Source: a virus (lineage: Duplodnaviria; Caudoviricetes). From it: a stretch of 30,707 nt of DNA. The stretch is from positions 1-30,707 of the IMG/VR virus record IMGVR_UViG_3300048881_000448. One strand, written 5' to 3'. Shown one piece after another: positions 1,687 through 30,707 of this stretch (its first letter is position 1; each line of letters opens with the position of its first letter). The position numbers were made by a program, and so were the translations under genes. Below the pieces are notes generated by a model. That model was not told where the DNA came from and made no database searches. It saw only the letters and a list, made by a program, of their open reading frames with translations.

Positions 1687-3117
1687 TTACGCGACCTTTG
1701 ATAAACGTTGTTTGCACATTTCTGGTAGGTTTGCTTCTACTAAAGCCTTTGCAAAAGGTGGCGGTACTGCATTCCCACACCTGGCTACTTGCTTAGTTTT
1801 TGAAATAGGCTTTCCGTTTGGGTCAACATCAATGATGTAATCGTCTGCAAAGCCTTGCGCTTTAAATAACTCTCGTGGCTGCAGCATACGCATACCTATA
1901 TCAACAATCTGATAATCGACACCGTGTATAGTTACTAATCCGAAGCGCTCTTTAGTTGTAATAGTTTGAAGTGGCTGATCGGCAGGGTGCCCGATATTGG
2001 TACCGTAATACTTAAGTAAAAATGCTCTAACTTCACCTAAGTGCAAACCTCCAGCTGTAATAGTGTGTGCTGGCTCATCTGCACGGTGCCCAATGTTAGT
2101 GCCGCGCATTTTTATCAAATGACTGGTTACAAGCGCGTTATGATCTACAGTGGTAACTGTTGGGGTAGGGTTATCAACTGGCGCGCCAATAACGCCAGTG
2201 TAATGCTTTGCAAGGAAGGCACTTACTAGGGCAAAGTGCCCACCTTTGACGCCAGCACATTGAGTTCTTAAAGGTTCGTTTAATGCCATGTTGCGCTGAC
2301 TGCTTGCGTTTGCATGCTCAGTTATAAAAGGTGTTACTTCACTAACAATAAATGGCTTATCAGACTCAATAAGAAACTTTTGAATACCCTTAGCAATTCT
2401 TTTCAGCGTATTTTCAGCTAAAGGCTTTTTACGCTCGAAAATTGACGGGCAGGGAATAGACCAATCGATGCATTCAGCAGCTGTGCGCCAATGCTTTAGC
2501 TTGCCTGTTTTAACTTCTGGTGTATCTGGTTTACCGTGGGTAGGGATAGGCCAGACAATTGGACGACCATCACGGCGAGCCACCATGAAAAGACGCTTGC
2601 GGATAGTAGGTGCACCATAGTCACATGCACGAAGCTCTTTGAATTCTACTTTATAGCCTTGGCGCTCTAGCGCCCTGACGAATGACTGAAAAGTTTTACC
2701 CTTACGATCCGGGCAAGGCTTGCCATCCACTATTGGTCCCCAAGTTTTAAACTCTTCCACATTTTCCAACATGATTACTCGAGGCTTAACAGTCGCAGCC
2801 CAGCGAACAGCCACCCATGCTAATCCACGAATTTTCTTTTCAACCGGCTTGCCACCTTTAGCTTTACTGAAGTGCTTACAATCAGGGGAGAGCCAGCACA
2901 GACCAACAGGTAAGCCGTTTACAGCTTCACGTGGATTAACATCCCAAACGCTTTCGCAATAATGCTTTGTGACTGGGTGATTCATAGCGTGCATAGCAAT
3001 AGCATCAGGGTCATGGTTGATAGCAATGTCGACACTTCTACCAATAGCCATCTCAATTCCCGAAGAAGCACCGCCGCCCCCAGCAAAATTATCAACAATG
3101 AGTTCTTTAAATAACAT
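1687..3117 (-). CDS. DNA cytosine-C5 methyltransferase (orphan, phage type)
   Basis: Motifs FAGGGG, SPDCKHFS, ENVEEF, RKRLF, CGNAV; start placed at ATG 3117 after a GAGG Shine-Dalgarno. Confidence 0.93.
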   Translation of the reverse strand: MLFKELIVDNFAGGGGASSGIEMAIGRSVDIAINHDPDAIAMHAMNHPVTKHYCESVWDVNPREAVNGLPVGLCWLSPDCKHFSKAKGGKPVEKKIRGLAWVAVRWAATVKPRVIMLENVEEFKTWGPIVDGKPCPDRKGKTFQSFVRALERQGYKVEFKELRACDYGAPTIRKRLFMVARRDGRPIVWPIPTHGKPDTPEVKTGKLKHWRTAAECIDWSIPCPSIFERKKPLAENTLKRIAKGIQKFLIESDKPFIVSEVTPFITEHANASSQRNMALNEPLRTQCAGVKGGHFALVSAFLAKHYTGVIGAPVDNPTPTVTTVDHNALVTSHLIKMRGTNIGHRADEPAHTITAGGLHLGEVRAFLLKYYGTNIGHPADQPLQTITTKERFGLVTIHGVDYQIVDIGMRMLQPRELFKAQGFADDYIIDVDPNGKPISKTKQVARCGNAVPPPFAKALVEANLPEMCKQRLSKVA

Positions 3118-3118
3118 T

Positions 3119-3391
3119 TTAAACCTCAAACATTTTAGCCTGGTGCTGCTCTAGCGGTTCTGGCCTGTTCGTAACTTCGAATACCTCAATTAATGAGTCA
3201 TGAACGAAGCTGCTGCAGATTTCAGTGCAAAATACTTTTTTACCATGCGCTTCACAGGTACCGAACTGGGTTCTGTCTTTCGCACGGCCTGTATACTTTT
3301 CAACGTAAGGGCAGTGCTTATCTTGCTTATACCCTTCAACTGAGAAGTGATTACAGGCTATGCATGCTTTAGGTAGTTTCATCTGCATCAT
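3119..3391 (-). CDS. Cys-rich hypothetical phage protein
   Basis: CIACNHF plus four more Cys; tightly packed in the operon. Confidence 0.7.
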   Translation of the reverse strand: MMQMKLPKACIACNHFSVEGYKQDKHCPYVEKYTGRAKDRTQFGTCEAHGKKVFCTEICSSFVHDSLIEVFEVTNRPEPLEQHQAKMFEV

Positions 3392-6419: not shown

Positions 6420-6623
6420 CTATTCAATAAAATCGTCTAAACCGCGTTGCTGTGCTCTTCGCTTGAACTTCTCAAGCGCGGTTTTTTCTAGTTTGTCGAT
6501 GCGGTAAACGTTGCAGCCGCATACTTCTGCAATAGCGTCACGAGTAATTATTTGCCCTGGCTCGATAAGCACACTTAGCACTGCCAAGCCAAGGTCAATG
6601 TTTAACTCGTCTTCGCGCTTCAT
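6420..6623 (-). CDS. Stand-alone sigma-70 region 4-like HTH protein
   Basis: TRDAIAEVCGCNVYRIDKLEKTALEKFKR resembles the sigma 4.2 consensus T..EI....GVTRERIRQIE..AL.KLR. Confidence 0.65.
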   Translation of the reverse strand: MKREDELNIDLGLAVLSVLIEPGQIITRDAIAEVCGCNVYRIDKLEKTALEKFKRRAQQRGLDDFIE

Positions 6624-7498
6624 TAAGCATTAGCAGCTAGCGCTGCAGCTTTAGCTTGCAAACTGAAGTAGCGGTCTAGGAATAGTTCTTTGGCACCCAT
6701 TGGTGGAAGCGGGTGAATGATTTCTTCACAAGGCACTTGATCACTAATGAATGCCCAGTGAGCAGGGTGAGGTGTCATTAGGTCGCGCACCTCGGTAGCT
6801 AGCATTTTTATATCTGCGTCTTTTACGCATGCATGAACTGGCCATTCAACGCCGACACTTCTGTAAAGGTTCTGTTCAATAGTGGTGTGAATACTTTGGT
6901 AGACAGGTAGCAACTGCTTTAAAGGGGAAACCATGTCACCACAGTAAGCTTCTGCAGCATCATGAAGTAGGGCAGCTAGCGCATGTTCTTCTGGTACCAA
7001 CTCACTAACAAGAACGGAATGTTGCGCAACTGAGTAGAATTTATTGGTGTGGCCATTGAAGCGGCACATGTTAGAAAGTGCGTGTGCGATGTCTTCAATA
7101 TCAAAAAGCATGTGCTTAATGTTGGTGTAATCAAACGTGGTACCAGAGCGCAGCTGAACTTTCGGAGGAACTTGAGCGTTTGATAGAGGTACCACATTAT
7201 TCGGCTTTGCCGGGGTGCTGGTGACTGTGATGTCGAACTCTTTACAGATTTCGCGAAGCTTGCTTACTGTCTCTTGGATCTTCTCAAACAGATAGTTTTC
7301 ACCAGGCCATGAGTTCGCATTGCTTAAATAACAATGATTGAGACCATCTTTCCAAACATCGATAAAGAAATAACCTTTATCTAGGGCTATTTGGTGCTGA
7401 ACACTAAAGCGAACATCATCAGCGATAGCATTTGTAAGAAGCAGCATTTCATCTTTGCCAGCTGCGATTGATTCTTTAAGTATTGAATTTGATTGCAT
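6623..7498 (-). CDS. HD-domain 5'-deoxynucleotidase (YfdR/YfbR-like) with N-terminal extension
   Basis: IEDIAHALSNMCRFNGH, YSVAQHS, ALLHDAAEAYCGD, VKDAD motifs. Confidence 0.88.
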   Translation of the reverse strand: MQSNSILKESIAAGKDEMLLLTNAIADDVRFSVQHQIALDKGYFFIDVWKDGLNHCYLSNANSWPGENYLFEKIQETVSKLREICKEFDITVTSTPAKPNNVVPLSNAQVPPKVQLRSGTTFDYTNIKHMLFDIEDIAHALSNMCRFNGHTNKFYSVAQHSVLVSELVPEEHALAALLHDAAEAYCGDMVSPLKQLLPVYQSIHTTIEQNLYRSVGVEWPVHACVKDADIKMLATEVRDLMTPHPAHWAFISDQVPCEEIIHPLPPMGAKELFLDRYFSLQAKAAALAANA

Positions 7499-7590
7499 TT
7501 TGTCGCATCTCCAGTTCAAAGCTATTGCTTTTTTGAACGTCCGTTATATATTAAGGCGCGGTTATTTATTAAACCGACACCCCACAGGGA

Positions 7591-7699
7591 ATATGCTTAA
7601 AGGTAAGAATCTTGCCTTTACTTACCAAAAAGATAATACTAATATTAGTAAAAAGGTAAGGTTATGCAATACCAAAACGGTAAGAAATTAACTGGTAAG
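7591..7699 (-). promoter_or_regulatory. OL/PL operator cluster (17-bp CTTACC-N5-GGTAAG-like sites)
   Basis: Sites at 7621-7637, 7644-7660 and 7668-7684, plus GGTAAG half-sites ending 7607 and 7699; same motif as OR. Confidence 0.75.
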
Positions 7700-7734
7700 A
7701 CCAGATAGTTGGGGTTTGAAGTAAGGGATTTTCA

Positions 7735-7796
7735 TTGAAGCAGTAAGATTTCTGTTAAAGTTTGGCTGTACATCCGTACAACAACATACACAGGAA
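7735..7796 (+). promoter_or_regulatory. Putative promoter of the 7802-8898 cassette with overlapping LexA-box-like site and RBS
   Basis: TTGAAG 7735-7740; extended -10 TGtTAAAGT 7753-7761; CTGT-ACATCCGT-ACAA 7766-7781; AGGA 7792-7795. Confidence 0.55.
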
Positions 7797-7801
7797 TAAT
7801 C

Positions 7802-8044
7802 ATGAAAAAACTGCTTAAAAACGCCTCTCTAATTTCAATCGCAATCTTTGCTTGCTATGCCTCTACCTCTGCTAACGCTGACCCCGTTAGCAAGCTTACT
7901 TGCGCCTTAAACCCTTCTTCATGCTCATCAACGCTTGGAGCTGGGGGTACAGGCCATGGTGGTACCGGCGGTGGTAATGGCGGTAACACTGGTACGAAAA
8001 CGGAAATCACAAACGGTGTAAATAATGCGAAAAGTAACGAATAG
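7802..8044 (+). CDS. Secreted peptide precursor (signal peptide, Cys-x6-Cys loop, Gly-rich segment)
   Basis: MKKLLK n-region, hydrophobic h-region, ANA|D signal peptidase I site; CALNPSSC; GAGGTGHGGTGGGNGG; good RBS. Confidence 0.85.
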   Translation: MKKLLKNASLISIAIFACYASTSANADPVSKLTCALNPSSCSSTLGAGGTGHGGTGGGNGGNTGTKTEITNGVNNAKSNE

Positions 8045-8053
8045 GTGTAATAA

Positions 8054-8605
8054 ATGGCGCTCATATCAATAGCTTTTGAATGGGCGTTAGACCAGTGGGC
8101 GGTAGTAGTTGCCGCCCTGGCATTTGTCTATAATATGCTCTTCAACTCACAAAACAGTAGGCTTATAGCCTCTTCTCTTACTGTGGCCTTAATGTATGCA
8201 TTCGGGCATTTCTTATTAGCTTGGATTAACGAGTTACCATTCGATGAGCAGGTGTACTTTCGGTACTCTTCGAGGTTTCTTCTTTATGCTATTGCCGGGT
8301 TCTTTATGGCAGCGCTTATATTTAAGCTCGGCCCCAACTTCACCACTACCACAGTTTTTTCAATCATGATTTTTTCAATGATCATGCAGCTGCTGCTTCA
8401 CATTGATAGAAATGTGATTGGACTAAATAAAATAAGTGAATCTATTGAGCTGGGTAACGCCATCGTCAATAAAGGTTTTCCATCTGGATATTGGTTCTTG
8501 TGGGATTTTTACACGGTAAGTCTGAATGTTACCGGTTGTTTTTTATTTATATATTTGTTCGTTGGTGAGGATATAAAGGAGTATCTATGTTCACGTTTTT
8601 CTTAG
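8054..8605 (+). CDS. Polytopic membrane protein (~5 TM), function unknown
   Basis: Five hydrophobic segments; AGGT RBS; 9 bp after the peptide gene. Confidence 0.85.
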   Translation: MALISIAFEWALDQWAVVVAALAFVYNMLFNSQNSRLIASSLTVALMYAFGHFLLAWINELPFDEQVYFRYSSRFLLYAIAGFFMAALIFKLGPNFTTTTVFSIMIFSMIMQLLLHIDRNVIGLNKISESIELGNAIVNKGFPSGYWFLWDFYTVSLNVTGCFLFIYLFVGEDIKEYLCSRFS

Positions 8606-8898
8606 TATTAGTGTTTGGTTTAGTCGTTTCAGCAATCGTCTTTGTGACATTTTCAAAACCAAATCATCAGGTAAAGCAAAAACAATTAGCCATATATATT
8701 GCCAATGTAAGATACCTTAAGAAGTGTGCTGAAGAGTGCAGTGATGGACTGCAAACACTTGAATATTCGAAGAGAAGAGAAGCCCTGATAGAAGAGCTCC
8801 TAAGTTACATTGAGAAACACAAACTAACTGACTGTGATGCAGTCAAATCGGCTGATATTATAAAGCTTGATGACTTTCGTTCCCGCCAGAGCGCTTAG
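8587..8898 (+). CDS. Single-pass membrane-anchored helical protein, function unknown
   Basis: N-terminal FTFFLVLVFGLVVSAIVFVTF anchor; strong AAGGAG RBS; overlaps the previous gene by 19 bp and cI convergently by 41 bp. Confidence 0.8.
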   Translation: MFTFFLVLVFGLVVSAIVFVTFSKPNHQVKQKQLAIYIANVRYLKKCAEECSDGLQTLEYSKRREALIEELLSYIEKHKLTDCDAVKSADIIKLDDFRSRQSA

Positions 8899-9313
8899 CA
8901 TCTTTGCTATTAATTAGGTTTTTATACTCCGTAATAATTAAGCTTGTGACAGCTTCTGAGTCTATCGATTTCTTTGGCTCATAAATACCCGCAGCTATTA
9001 ACTGGTTTATTACGTTTTTAACGGCCAGTGTAAGTAGGTCCTCATCATTCAAGTGACCAACATTATCATCTTTCGAAACCTGTAGTTTATCCATCCAGCC
9101 TACAGGCTTTTCGAAGGCCTTTTCTAGCTTCCTTGCGAACTTATCACCCATTTTCTTATTACTGTTGCCATTTTTCAGTTGGCTTATGTAGTTTGCATCA
9201 GTGTCTACAAGGTCCGACAACGCCTTTATTGAACCGATCACAGCTATAAGATATTCAAGGTTTAATCGCCTAACCTCTTTTACATCCATTATAAATTCCA
9301 GTCGCTTATTCAT
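8858..9313 (-). CDS. cI: CI-like repressor (HTH, no S24 peptidase domain)
   Basis: VRRLNL..LI, YISQL, MGDKFARKLE, P.GWMD phage-repressor HTH pattern; divergent from Cro across operators. Confidence 0.88.
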   Translation of the reverse strand: MNKRLEFIMDVKEVRRLNLEYLIAVIGSIKALSDLVDTDANYISQLKNGNSNKKMGDKFARKLEKAFEKPVGWMDKLQVSKDDNVGHLNDEDLLTLAVKNVINQLIAAGIYEPKKSIDSEAVTSLIITEYKNLINSKDAKRSGGNESHQAL

Positions 9314-9336: not shown

Positions 9337-9404
9337 CTTACCTAAATGGTAAATTAGCTTGACGGTAAGATTTGTCAATACTAGAATCTTACTTAAACGG
9401 TAAG
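9337..9404. promoter_or_regulatory. OR with divergent PR / PRM promoters
   Basis: Operators 9337-9353, 9353-9369 and 9388-9404; PR = TTGACG(9359)-17 bp-TAGAAT(9382); reverse-strand TTGACA at 9373-9378. Confidence 0.82.
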
Positions 9405-9941: not shown

Positions 9942-10303
9942 GTGCAGCCATTCTATTTAAAACATCAAAAGACTTGCCGCCGCCTTTTGGTGGGTGCGCC
10001 TATTTTGAGAGGTCCTGTGATCCGTTTCACCCTAAGGTATTGCAGTCTGCTTTAGACAAAACAATAGATTCGTCAGACGTTCCGGAGTCTGGGTGGATGG
10101 GAATAGATTGGGCAGAAAATCCAATCTGCTTTATTCCAGATGGAACAGGTTACGAGAAACGCAATGAAAGCTTTTCCATTGAAGAAGGTTACTTCCCAGA
10201 TGGAAGAATGTTCGCTTATCCCCTTGGGGAAAATGGCGATTATTTAAAAAATCGGCACCAAGCCGAAAAAACCAAGAGGAACAATAATGGACAATCAGCA
10301 TAA
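9938..10303 (+). CDS. Hypothetical protein upstream of acb2
   Basis: AAGGAG RBS, GTG start, overlaps acb2. Confidence 0.75.
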
Positions 10304-10511
10304 GAAAATTAAGGGGTATAGAGACCTCTCTCAGGAAGAAATCGACTTAATGAACGAGGGGAAAGAACTTTCACAAAAAGTGGGAGACTTCATTTCAAAA
10401 TTAGAAGCAAACGAAAAACTGGATAAGCGATGGGTCGCAATAGGGAAAACAGACCTGCAAAAAGGGTTTATGTCTGCCATTAGAAGTATCGCTCAGCCAA
10501 CTAGTTTTTAA
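10287..10511 (+). CDS. acb2: Anti-CBASS protein Acb2 (cyclic oligonucleotide sponge)
   Basis: [22 protein letters not shown] and RW.AIGKTD.Q.G.M...R.IAQP.SF match the Acb2 sequence as I recall it; GAGGA RBS. Confidence 0.92.
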
Positions 10512-28027: not shown

Positions 28028-30707
28028 ATGAGCCTTTTAGAAGATATTGGTGGGTTCTTTTTTGGGTGGTTAGCACCTGAAGCGCCAGAGCCAATGCCGC
28101 CTGGTACTGAGTTAACATCAGCGCAAACTGATGCACATATTGGCGTAGTAATTGGAAAGGTCCACAAGACGACAGGCAATATCATATTCAAAGAAACCAA
28201 TGATGGTGACTCTGATGATATTAAAAATGACTTGCTTCATATCATTGTCGTGTGGTCTGAAAAAGTTGTGTCAATTGATGAGGTTTATGTAGACGATATC
28301 CCTGTTTCTTCTGATAACCCTGCATTTTTCCATGATGATGGCGGGCGTGTGGTGCACATGCGTAATTTCCCTGATGGCATGGACAACTATGAAGATCCAT
28401 TACTTACTGCAGCAGGGTGGCGATTATCAGACAAAGCTTCAGGTAAAGCATGCAGCTACATTCGTCTTGAATATCATGGTGGCGAGTTTGCTATCACATC
28501 AGAGCCTAAAATTACCGCTGATTTAACGGGTACTACTCACTCAAATCCAGCACTAGCTTTACTCGACTACCTTAAAGATCCGTTGTATGGAAAAGGCCTT
28601 TCTACTGGGCTGATTAACACAAATTCATTTTACAGAGGAAGAGATCTTTGTGACTCTCTTGTCGATGAGGTTGCTGGACAGCCAGAGCAGAGGCCGCTTT
28701 TTAGCTCCAACTGTAAGCTTGATACCAGTAAAGATATATTGGAAAACGTCAATGTACTGTTAAAGCCAATGCGTGGCTGGCTGCCTATTATCGATGGTCA
28801 ATTAACTTTAGTTATTGAGCAAGATGATGACCCAGTTAGCATACCAATCCTTGAGAAAGATATCATCGAGATGGATGGTGTTTCTGAAGGAAGTAAGAAC
28901 AAGCGATACAATCGTGTTGCGGTAACTTACTATGAGCCTGCAGCAGATGGCACTGCGCAGGAAGCCGCTTACCCACCTAAAGGCAGTGCGTTAGAGGCTC
29001 AGCTATTAGAAGAAGATAACGGCTTCATTAATGAAGGTTCCGTAGATCTTGTCACTTGCAACAACTATTACGAAGCTCTTGAGTTCGCTAAAACGTGGCT
29101 TGAAATTTCACGCGAACAAACAAAAACCCGCATACATTTGCCTAAGTGGGCGTTGATTTATGACGTGGGTGACATTGTTCCTGTTTACGATTCGTTTTTA
29201 GGCTGGGAAGGAAAGCTATTTCGGATAGAGCGGATTTCCTCCAATAAAAAACGGGTAACACTAACGGTTCGAGAGCACCAGCCCTATATTTATGATTTTT
29301 TTGGGGAAGGCAACAAACCAGAAATACCTGATACCACATATAGCTTTTCTAACCCCGATGAGCCAAGCGACTTGACGATTGAACACGTATATTCTGCGTT
29401 CGTACAAGTTAAAATCTCTTGGTATTCTGAAGCATCACGTTTCCTTTACCAGGTATTAGATGAGCAAGGCCTATTGATAGAAACGGATTCAATAGCGCGT
29501 TATCACGTAAACCTTTCAGGCTACGCGCTTGGTACCTACCGTTTTAGGGTGATGGCGCTAGGTGGTCTTTCTGCCCGAAGCGGATGGGCTGAAATACCGT
29601 TGATAATGCAAAAGCCTGGCGTACCAACAGATATTACAATAAACCCCACAGCTACAGAGTTGGAAGTTATCCCATACTTAGCCGGTTCTGATAGCTCAAC
29701 CGCGTTTTTGTATTCCATTAGTCACGACCTAACAGATGAAGAGCCGCCTTTGCCATATCGTGGGCCAGCTCATGCTTATACGTTCCCTGGCTTAGCACCA
29801 GAACGTGATTTCAAAATATGGGTTTGCTCATCCAATGCTCTTGGTGAGTCGCAATGGACGTTCGTAGTTGCAAGGACGTCTGCAGTAGATGATAGGTGGG
29901 TAAGCGTAATAGCTAATGTGCAGTGGCCTGGCCTACCTGCAACTCTAAAAGACCACGTTGAATCAATTACTAACGACGTGTCTTATTGGAGTACACAAAC
30001 CAGTGAGCAAGGCGACGACTATCAGCAGCTTATTTACAACGTTACCGAAGCGGTAAGCGCTAACCAGATAAACAGCACAGAGATAATCGGACTTAAACAA
30101 AAAGTTGGTACCAAAACCGTCGCTGCACAATTTACTGAATTTAAGCAGGTGAATATCGGTTATGAAGATGAAAACGGCGACTGGATAGTCGGTGCCCCCC
30201 TAGTTCGAGCATTCGACGAAGTGAAAGTGCAGAACAAAGATGGACAAGAACTCTCAGTGATCAACTTCATGCAAGCACTTGAAAATCAGATAGGTGAACT
30301 AGGCGGCACTTATTACCTTGGCGTTGTAGATGAAAACGAAAACTTCACCGGGCTAAGTATACAGGGCGGTAATGGCGACAGCGACATTCTGCTTTACATG
30401 GATAACCTTCGCTTTGCGAGCACTGCAGGTGAAGTGTTCTTCTGGTTAAATACAATAAGTGGGCGACTTGAAATAGGTGCAAACACTGAATTTAAAGGCA
30501 CCATGCGTGCAGCTAAAAAGCTCGTCGTTTTACCCAATGTTATGGAAGTGGAAGACCCGTCTGGCTTCGGTCCAGACAACTTATGGATATGGAAAGGAAG
30601 CCCGATTCTCGATCAAAACGGAGAGCCTGACTACGGCGCCTTAACCAAACAAAATGCTTCATTAGGCTGGCGCGACTTAAATGGTAACGAGTACTTCGGT
30701 GGCTCAG
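28028..30707 (+). CDS. Tail tip / host-specificity protein (gpJ-like), truncated by the window end
   Basis: ATG 28028 (MSLLEDIGGFFFGWLAPE...); SNPALALLDYL....YGKG motif and Fn3-like segments; absent from the ORF track, consistent with no stop before the window end. Confidence 0.85.
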   Translation, partial: MSLLEDIGGFFFGWLAPEAPEPMPPGTELTSAQTDAHIGVVIGKVHKTTGNIIFKETNDGDSDDIKNDLLHIIVVWSEKVVSIDEVYVDDIPVSSDNPAFFHDDGGRVVHMRNFPDGMDNYEDPLLTAAGWRLSDKASGKACSYIRLEYHGGEFAITSEPKITADLTGTTHSNPALALLDYLKDPLYGKGLSTGLINTNSFYRGRDLCDSLVDEVAGQPEQRPLFSSNCKLDTSKDILENVNVLLKPMRGWLPIIDGQLTLVIEQDDDPVSIPILEKDIIEMDGVSEGSKNKRYNRVAVTYYEPAADGTAQEAAYPPKGSALEAQLLEEDNGFINEGSVDLVTCNNYYEALEFAKTWLEISREQTKTRIHLPKWALIYDVGDIVPVYDSFLGWEGKLFRIERISSNKKRVTLTVREHQPYIYDFFGEGNKPEIPDTTYSFSNPDEPSDLTIEHVYSAFVQVKISWYSEASRFLYQVLDEQGLLIETDSIARYHVNLSGYALGTYRFRVMALGGLSARSGWAEIPLIMQKPGVPTDITINPTATELEVIPYLAGSDSSTAFLYSISHDLTDEEPPLPYRGPAHAYTFPGLAPERDFKIWVCSSNALGESQWTFVVARTSAVDDRWVSVIANVQWPGLPATLKDHVESITNDVSYWSTQTSEQGDDYQQLIYNVTEAVSANQINSTEIIGLKQKVGTKTVAAQFTEFKQVNIGYEDENGDWIVGAPLVRAFDEVKVQNKDGQELSVINFMQALENQIGELGGTYYLGVVDENENFTGLSIQGGNGDSDILLYMDNLRFASTAGEVFFWLNTISGRLEIGANTEFKGTMRAAKKLVVLPNVMEVEDPSGFGPDNLWIWKGSPILDQNGEPDYGALTKQNASLGWRDLNGNEYFGGS

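Follow-up and report, generated by a model that had tools for sequence, protein, structure and literature searches.

A candidate peptide-signaling cassette from an unnamed, widespread family beside the non-cleavable repressor of a lambdoid prophage

In the immunity region of a lambdoid temperate phage, three adjacent genes encode a small precursor, a five-helix membrane (TM) protein and a single-pass membrane protein. Sequence comparisons place this cassette in an unnamed, widespread family, and we give an even chance to the reading that the three genes form a peptide-sensing module in which the third protein acts as an antirepressor of the adjacent, peptidase-less repressor. The observations beneath this reading are gene content, conservation, co-occurrence and fusions in relatives. 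A sequence-only reading of the same DNA had proposed peptide signaling for lysogeny control; co-conservation, recurrence and co-variation support it in part, while we infer export, binding and control of lysogeny.

The DNA analyzed here (the window, 30,707 nucleotides) carries genes for integrase, excisionase, a P-like loader, Q, lysis, terminase, portal, capsid and tail proteins as judged by Pfam and PHROG matches, and the source of the cassette is an Alteromonas-type lambdoid prophage. The closest relatives of the window are prophages of Alteromonas portus and Alteromonas sp. 76-1, whose TM proteins are 95% and 61% identical, respectively. Elsewhere in the window, the gene at 10287-10511 (plus strand) encodes an Acb2/Tad1 hairpin protein (PF24729, E 1e-16), likely an anti-defence nucleotide sponge, that is also found in the related locus L002 and has other genes in its place in L001 and L004. 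The first pL gene (6623-7519, minus strand) encodes an HD-type nucleotide phosphatase with an N-terminal part of about 110 aa that has no match, and the early left operon contains a gene for a C-5 cytosine DNA methylase (1687-3129, minus strand). About 2.5 kb located 3' of the tail genes (28200-30707) has no ORF longer than 65 aa and includes an operator-like site with one mismatch (30041-30057). The features of the immunity region are as follows:

7802-8044, plus strand: gene 1, 80-aa precursor, likely a pheromone precursor
8054-8605, plus strand: gene 2, 183-aa five-helix membrane protein, likely the receptor
8587-8898, plus strand: gene 3, 103-aa single-pass protein, candidate membrane-tethered antirepressor
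9313-8858, minus strand: repressor, 151 aa, HTH and a conserved C-terminal helical domain of about 45 aa
9418-9681, plus strand: Cro-like gene by position, divergent from the repressor, with a match only to an unnamed PHROG (E 0.002)
7621-7637, 7644-7660 and 7668-7684, no strand: three left operators of the CTTACC-N5-GGTAAG type, from sequence
9337-9404, no strand: three right operators, from sequence
9359-9387: pR, TTGACG-17-TAGAAT, within the right operator block
7525-7560, plus strand: likely rightward promoter, TTGCTT-16-TATATT, facing pL across the left operators, possible start at 7560
7766-7781, no strand: LexA-like palindrome matching 7 of 8 core bases; a possible extended -10 (7753-7761) lies just before it

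The ORFs, their ribosome sites (AGGA, AGGTG and AAGGAG, one each) and the operators confirm the arrangement that had been described, in which three tightly coupled genes lie between the left operators and the 3' end of the repressor gene and are opposed to it. The end of gene 3 overlaps the 3' end of the repressor gene by 41 nt, an overlap that measures 38-44 nt in 5/5 relatives checked, and the left operator block is kept in 5/5 aligned relatives. The close relatives (L001, L002, L004, L070/L072 and L073, a set without L003 and L078) have all three genes beside the same type of repressor, as expected of genes that are conserved together. The three ORFs are intact in relatives with 41-99% TM identity and are therefore not chance ORFs; they are confirmed as real. 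The cassette had been described as richer in AT than the structural genes. Its GC content is indeed 0.407 compared to 0.468 for the late genes; the values for the repressor and peptide genes alone are 0.386 and 0.465, respectively. AT-richness is thus weak evidence, because the repressor gene has it too and the peptide gene does not. In lambda, rexAB lies between cI and OL and is transcribed with cI. The suggestion that our cassette occupies the rexAB position holds for its place, with membrane-protein cargo between cI and OL in both cases, but the direction is opposite, and the cassette also differs in having three genes, a putative exported peptide and no sequence match to rexAB.

The likely rightward promoter at 7525-7560 is absent from the list given by a consensus promoter scan. 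One contig from an RNA run begins at 7560, 7 nt past TATATT, with a 21-nt loose end that we take to be a template-switch adaptor; this single contig suggests, though weakly, a transcript that runs rightward across the left operators. Contigs from eight RNA runs, all chosen by matching this stretch, span portions of the cassette or the repressor gene, and seven of the eight cover only 7560-9239, with the caveat that such contigs give neither strand nor level and that uncovered parts prove nothing; in run X5, lytic genes are covered as well. Coverage confined to this part is what lysogen genes would give. It points weakly, the runs having been chosen by the stretch, to a lysogen-expressed defence, which could be superinfection exclusion or an Abi or toxin-antitoxin system in which a periplasmic peptide restrains a toxic membrane complex. 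The cassette does lie in a slot for defence cargo and does encode membrane proteins. However, none of the three genes has a match in PADLOC, and the tandem cores and swappable export leaders described below suit a diffusible signal better, making defence an improbable explanation.

A LexA-like palindrome is present 36-44 nt upstream of the peptide start in 4/5 close relatives. Scored against what we take to be the LexA box consensus, it has 7/8 core bases in the window, L001 and L004 and 8/8 in L073, and it is absent in L072. Such boxes are not enriched across the family (5/33 and 8/93, versus 13/270 controls), and the palindrome at 7766-7781 may be an RNA hairpin instead of a LexA box.

Gene 1 had been interpreted as a Sec-type precursor with a mature peptide of about 54 aa. 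By eye this holds, with a leader at residues 1-26 (K2, K3, K6, a hydrophobic stretch and A-N-A at 24-26) and 54 aa remaining as the mature part, but the h-region lies below the 19-residue threshold of the hydrophobic-segment scan. A lipoprotein reading based on C18 was rejected, that cysteine being missing in L070 and L073. The emphasis placed earlier on a CALNPSSC loop was not borne out by the relatives, where the loop is variable (ALNPSS, SILPIA, GFAPWA and SIAPWM). The C-x6-C loop was rejected as the ligand on this ground and on the presence of the Cys pair in only 20/51 Sec-like and 3/48 other precursors. Leader, loop and tail all differ between the peptides of close relatives, and what is kept is a core, GAGGTGHGG in the window (residues 46-54), with the clade consensus GAGG[TS][GD]HGG preceded by S/T-L or T-T/Q-S. 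The core is doubled in L004 and L073, and the core of L073 is identical to that of the window although the TM proteins are 41% identical. Judged from these alignments, the conserved unit of the peptide is the core and not the cysteine loop.

To describe the family we analyzed 120 loci with 130 cassettes; since the loci include near-duplicates, counts are also given by cluster. A small ORF with a Gly/Pro core (score at least 5) lies directly upstream of the TM gene in 99/130 cassettes versus 13/438 control genes, by a score that was designed after the peptides had been seen and with two cassettes cut inside arrays. The cores, which elsewhere in the family include GNGAGIEPP, GGQGGGVEP, NGGGLKPDP and GIGSGDPP, are tandemly repeated in up to six copies per precursor (for example in L191, L196 and L178), with 20/99 precursors repeated by a crude count. 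The leaders of the 99 precursors were sorted by a crude rule, which misfiled some (such as L001), into Sec-like (51), FlgM-like (28) and double-glycine-like (6) classes, with 14 others. A constant core, interchangeable export leaders and frequent multiplication are how the precursor of a diffusible signal would be expected to look. The co-variation of peptide and TM protein that had been anticipated was also found: cores are more alike where the TM proteins are more alike (rho 0.22, against a permutation maximum of 0.064), a correlation that shared descent can also produce and that depends on imprecise core extraction. Against the reading of gene 1 as a diffusible signal, we counted that Sec export would take the peptide no further than the producer's own periplasm. 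On balance, the gene 1 product is likely exported and trimmed to its core.

Two other kinds of peptide were considered. A microcin-like exported toxin encoded by gene 1, with genes 2 and 3 encoding membrane immunity proteins, would fit the double-glycine-like leaders of some members and the loci where one peptide gene is followed by 2-5 TM paralogs, an order that resembles immunity arrays. It fits less well with cores of 6-10 neutral Gly/Pro residues, and immunity needs neither a fused cytoplasmic domain nor a link to a repressor. No match to a known toxin (bacteriocin), exporter or immunity family was found in Pfam, NCBIfam or PHROG, whose profiles easily miss short peptides. We regard a microcin system as having only a small chance of being correct. 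Lasso peptides follow a rule of Gly1 with Asp/Glu at 7-9 together with B and C maturases; the core GAGGTGHGG contains no acidic residue, and no maturase was found among the window proteins scanned with Pfam and PHROG.

Gene 2 encodes a protein with five hydrophobic segments (6-24, 37-55, 75-93, 99-117 and 152-170), and its structure model has five long helices (pLDDT 85.7), which bears out the earlier prediction of about five TM helices. The residues conserved among members are Y71, H116-I-D118-R119-N120, W147, W150 and Y153. The model and the charge bias together put these polar and aromatic residues on a single face, where helices 3, 4 and 5 end, and this face is predicted to be periplasmic because the charge bias, from which we infer the topology, places the N-terminus outside and the C-terminus inside. 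No named family was matched by gene 2 in Pfam, NCBIfam, PHROG or PADLOC and there was no TPR match; 2/38 TM family members matched an unnamed PHROG. A PDB sequence search gave only transporter matches with E of at least 0.007, and a fold search with the model found no clear relative, its top hit being a designed helical barrel (Z 9.8). One Atlas cluster for the TM protein was automatically named MreD (score 0.92) without a common Pfam; for MreD, ECF-S and 5TM-LYT, gene 2 had no Pfam match and none was among the 50 folds listed. The statement that the cassette belongs to no recognized family therefore stands, with no Sie, Abi or bacteriocin match in Pfam, NCBIfam, PHROG or PADLOC.

From its features, gene 2 is probably the receptor for the peptide. 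It could instead process or modify the peptide, a role like that of AgrB, with the true receptor encoded elsewhere, and the conserved H116/D118 pair is compatible with this. However, many members have Y, F or A in place of H116, there is no conserved Cys or Ser nucleophile, no enzyme fold was matched and the fusions add a helical domain that is non-enzymatic, all of which make an enzyme very improbable.

Gene 3 encodes, as had been noted, a single-pass protein with a helical soluble domain: one hydrophobic segment (2-20) is followed by lysines and a predicted cytoplasmic helical part with the C-terminal tail IIKLDDFR. Among the 130 cassettes, the third gene is a separate single-pass gene in 73, a fused cytoplasmic domain in 25 and neither in 32. 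In clustering, one fusion falls together with 23 separate gene-3 proteins, gene 3 of Pseudoalteromonas phage HS6 matches a fusion profile at 5.7e-5, and the model of a fusion protein (pTM 0.80) has three helices in addition to its five TM helices. The homology of fused and separate forms in these two cases and the fold of the fusion lead us to conclude that the TM protein and the third gene act as a unit in the family. The gene 3 protein of the window has no detectable homology to other gene-3 proteins or fused domains (best profile probability 1.9%) and is equivalent to them by position and anatomy only; its Atlas matches were all below 0.9. No antirepressor family was matched by the 49 window ORFs scanned with PHROGs, from a record that may be incomplete. 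A tail like IIKLDDFR occurs in 14/33 gene-3 proteins adjacent to repressors, compared to 3/40 others and 19/470 controls, this motif being defined post hoc and 5 of its 14 repressor-adjacent hits coming from the window's own clade.

The repressor of the window matches PHROG 12107 over its HTH (E 2e-12) and has no Pfam match and no S24 peptidase domain, consistent with its earlier description as non-cleavable. The next downstream gene is of repressor type in 35/122 cassettes (16/46 TM clusters) and convergent in 34; the 35 consist of 21 with a Pfam XRE/CI HTH, 4 with PHROG matches and 10 homologues, and the Pfam scan took in 58 of the 122 next-downstream genes, those reading as housekeeping being left out. 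Peptidase_S24 was found in 0/21 of the Pfam-HTH neighbors; repressors of the P2, Mu and satellite types usually lack S24 in any case, which weakens this count as evidence. A held-out repressor profile applied to all neighbors detected 15/122 downstream and 0/123 upstream, and a search with the repressor as query found three viral loci, all of which have the cassette. The anticipated co-occurrence with this repressor type was thus observed, in that the cassette recurs beside peptidase-less repressors. The flanks, read by eye, are lambdoid, P2-like, Mu-like and integrase-CI-Cox elements as well as some plain chromosomal sites. The C-terminal domains of the repressors are short, helical and weakly alike, with at most 34% to the window clade.

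Cargo of any kind is often found in the slot downstream of cI, and this alone can give convergent adjacency. The peptide might therefore signal to a host protein or to a regulator encoded elsewhere, with adjacency to repressors reflecting a cargo habit. This would account for the 87/122 cassettes with no repressor-type next gene, many of which are among housekeeping genes or after tail genes, for the largest cluster of gene-3 proteins, which takes in both repressor-adjacent and chromosomal loci, and for the placement of the cassette after tail genes in HS6 and Rheinheimera-type prophages. Against it, the enrichment is downstream only, convergent and spread over 16 TM clusters, and the packing is tight, with a stop-to-stop gap of -44 to +19 nt between cassette and repressor in 16/18 loci listed. 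We consider an output located elsewhere unlikely, and action of the cassette on this repressor slightly more probable than its opposite. The repressor cannot be the sole output in the family, because 87/122 cassettes have no repressor neighbor and 32/130 have no gene 3.

Other arrangements near repressors were also seen. In L108, L113, L138, L142, L144, L146-L148 and L150, fused cassettes face paired small unannotated proteins of the RRxRYLIQT.. type, which have no Pfam or PHROG match, and short XRE genes. L198 and L199 contain tandem repeats of the whole cassette that end at one convergent HTH gene, and include one 261-aa precursor built of repeated core units.

Searches with one protein at a time recovered close kin only: 6 proteins, 9 with a profile and 11 among 1.84 billion representatives. 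Iterated profiles detected the TM domain in 27/401 and then 55/301 genomes of the family of A. portus, 4/79 of its genus, 16/401 of its order and 1/400 of its class (the class with the broad profile, which was built partly from the sampled genomes); a narrow profile applied to the order found 1/401, the seed genome only. The low counts hold for the genomes searched and do not amount to absence. Named carriers include records of Rheinheimera, Arsukibacterium, Alkalimonas, Paraneptunicella and Alteromonas, with A. portus and Alteromonas sp. 76-1 as cultured carriers and HS6 as an isolated phage. The HS6 cassette has a 23% TM match and the same three-gene layout, placed after the tail genes; its 190-aa TM gene (L006 3986-4558) carries no annotation in the record, where a 21-aa ORF within the gene is listed. 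The cassette had been presented as a module of the immunity region. This is the case in the window, but members also occur behind tail genes, in chromosomes and as arrays of TM genes with a single peptide gene. In L020-L024, L026, L031, L043 and L092, a single peptide gene precedes 2-6 TM paralogs and gene 3 is missing; these arrays adjoin genes reading as argH/argA, and some of the paralogs are broken. One genome carries 10 TM matches.

In the mechanism we propose, the gene 1 product would be exported and trimmed to GAGGTGHGG, which would bind a predicted periplasm-facing pocket of gene 2, and peptide-bound gene 2 would switch the anchored gene 3 protein. With little peptide, gene 3 would hold the C-terminal domain of the repressor at the membrane, favoring lysis or induction. 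With much peptide, from many lysogens or recent infections, gene 3 would be shut off and lysogeny favored. That the peptide would favor lysogeny is suggested by analogy to arbitrium only. The LexA-like box may add SOS input in the window clade.

Several known systems resemble parts of this proposal. In Agr/Com of Firmicutes, a peptide is sensed outside the cell by a polytopic membrane domain. The cassette shares putative outside sensing of a peptide by a polytopic membrane protein, whereas genes 2 and 3 (183 and 103 aa) have no kinase match, there is no response regulator and the fusions carry a three-helix domain. Small-protein modules of Vibrio phages reportedly comprise soluble transcription factors and small ORFs, with no exported peptide or membrane receptor. 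These modules cause induction without DNA damage, and the cassette would likewise be a signal-gated route of induction in Gram-negative prophages (PMC10432266). Gifsy phages have LexA-controlled antirepressors that are soluble and encoded outside the immunity region; the cassette is similar in its non-cleavable repressor, candidate small antirepressor and upstream LexA-like box in 4/5 close relatives, and differs in that the candidate antirepressor is membrane-anchored, encoded inside the immunity region and paired with a peptide and a TM protein (PMC3121763). Arbitrium of Bacillus phages consists of AimP-AimR-AimX, where AimR is a cytoplasmic TPR transcription factor and the peptide is imported by Opp, and phage peptide communication is described in Gram-positive hosts (PMC13389391). 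As in arbitrium so described, a putative secreted propeptide gene lies beside a presumed receptor gene in a temperate phage and receptor-peptide pairs diversify; unlike arbitrium, the cassette has a five-helix membrane protein without TPR or HTH, a separate anchored partner and Gram-negative hosts (PMC13389391). The cassette would act in the manner of arbitrium and of Gifsy antirepression, but it falls outside RRNPP and two-component systems. Neither it nor a Gram-negative peptide system is described in the literature that we searched, outside which most subscription journals lie. The cassette is made of unnamed parts, with a putative function.

Taken more broadly, the family may be a widespread, undescribed class of peptide quorum sensing, in which short Gly/Pro pheromones leaving by Sec, flagellar or double-glycine routes would be perceived by a new kinase-less five-helix receptor and relayed through a membrane-tethered antirepressor to repressors of the non-cleavable kind in lambdoid, P2-like, Mu-like and satellite elements. 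It would be a Gram-negative counterpart of arbitrium, found in marine Gammaproteobacteria and in the mobile elements they carry, and the chromosomal copies and receptor arrays would represent eavesdropping or manipulation by the host. This wider reading is tentative, and we put it at slightly less than an even chance. It is directly testable, given a nine-residue core, cultured hosts and an isolated phage. Even with an output other than the repressor, the peptide and five-helix family would be a new system of signaling or antagonism. If correct, the proposal would reveal a phage peptide system made from unnamed parts in abundant Gram-negative marine bacteria and would explain how the decision to leave dormancy is made in prophages whose repressors are non-cleavable.
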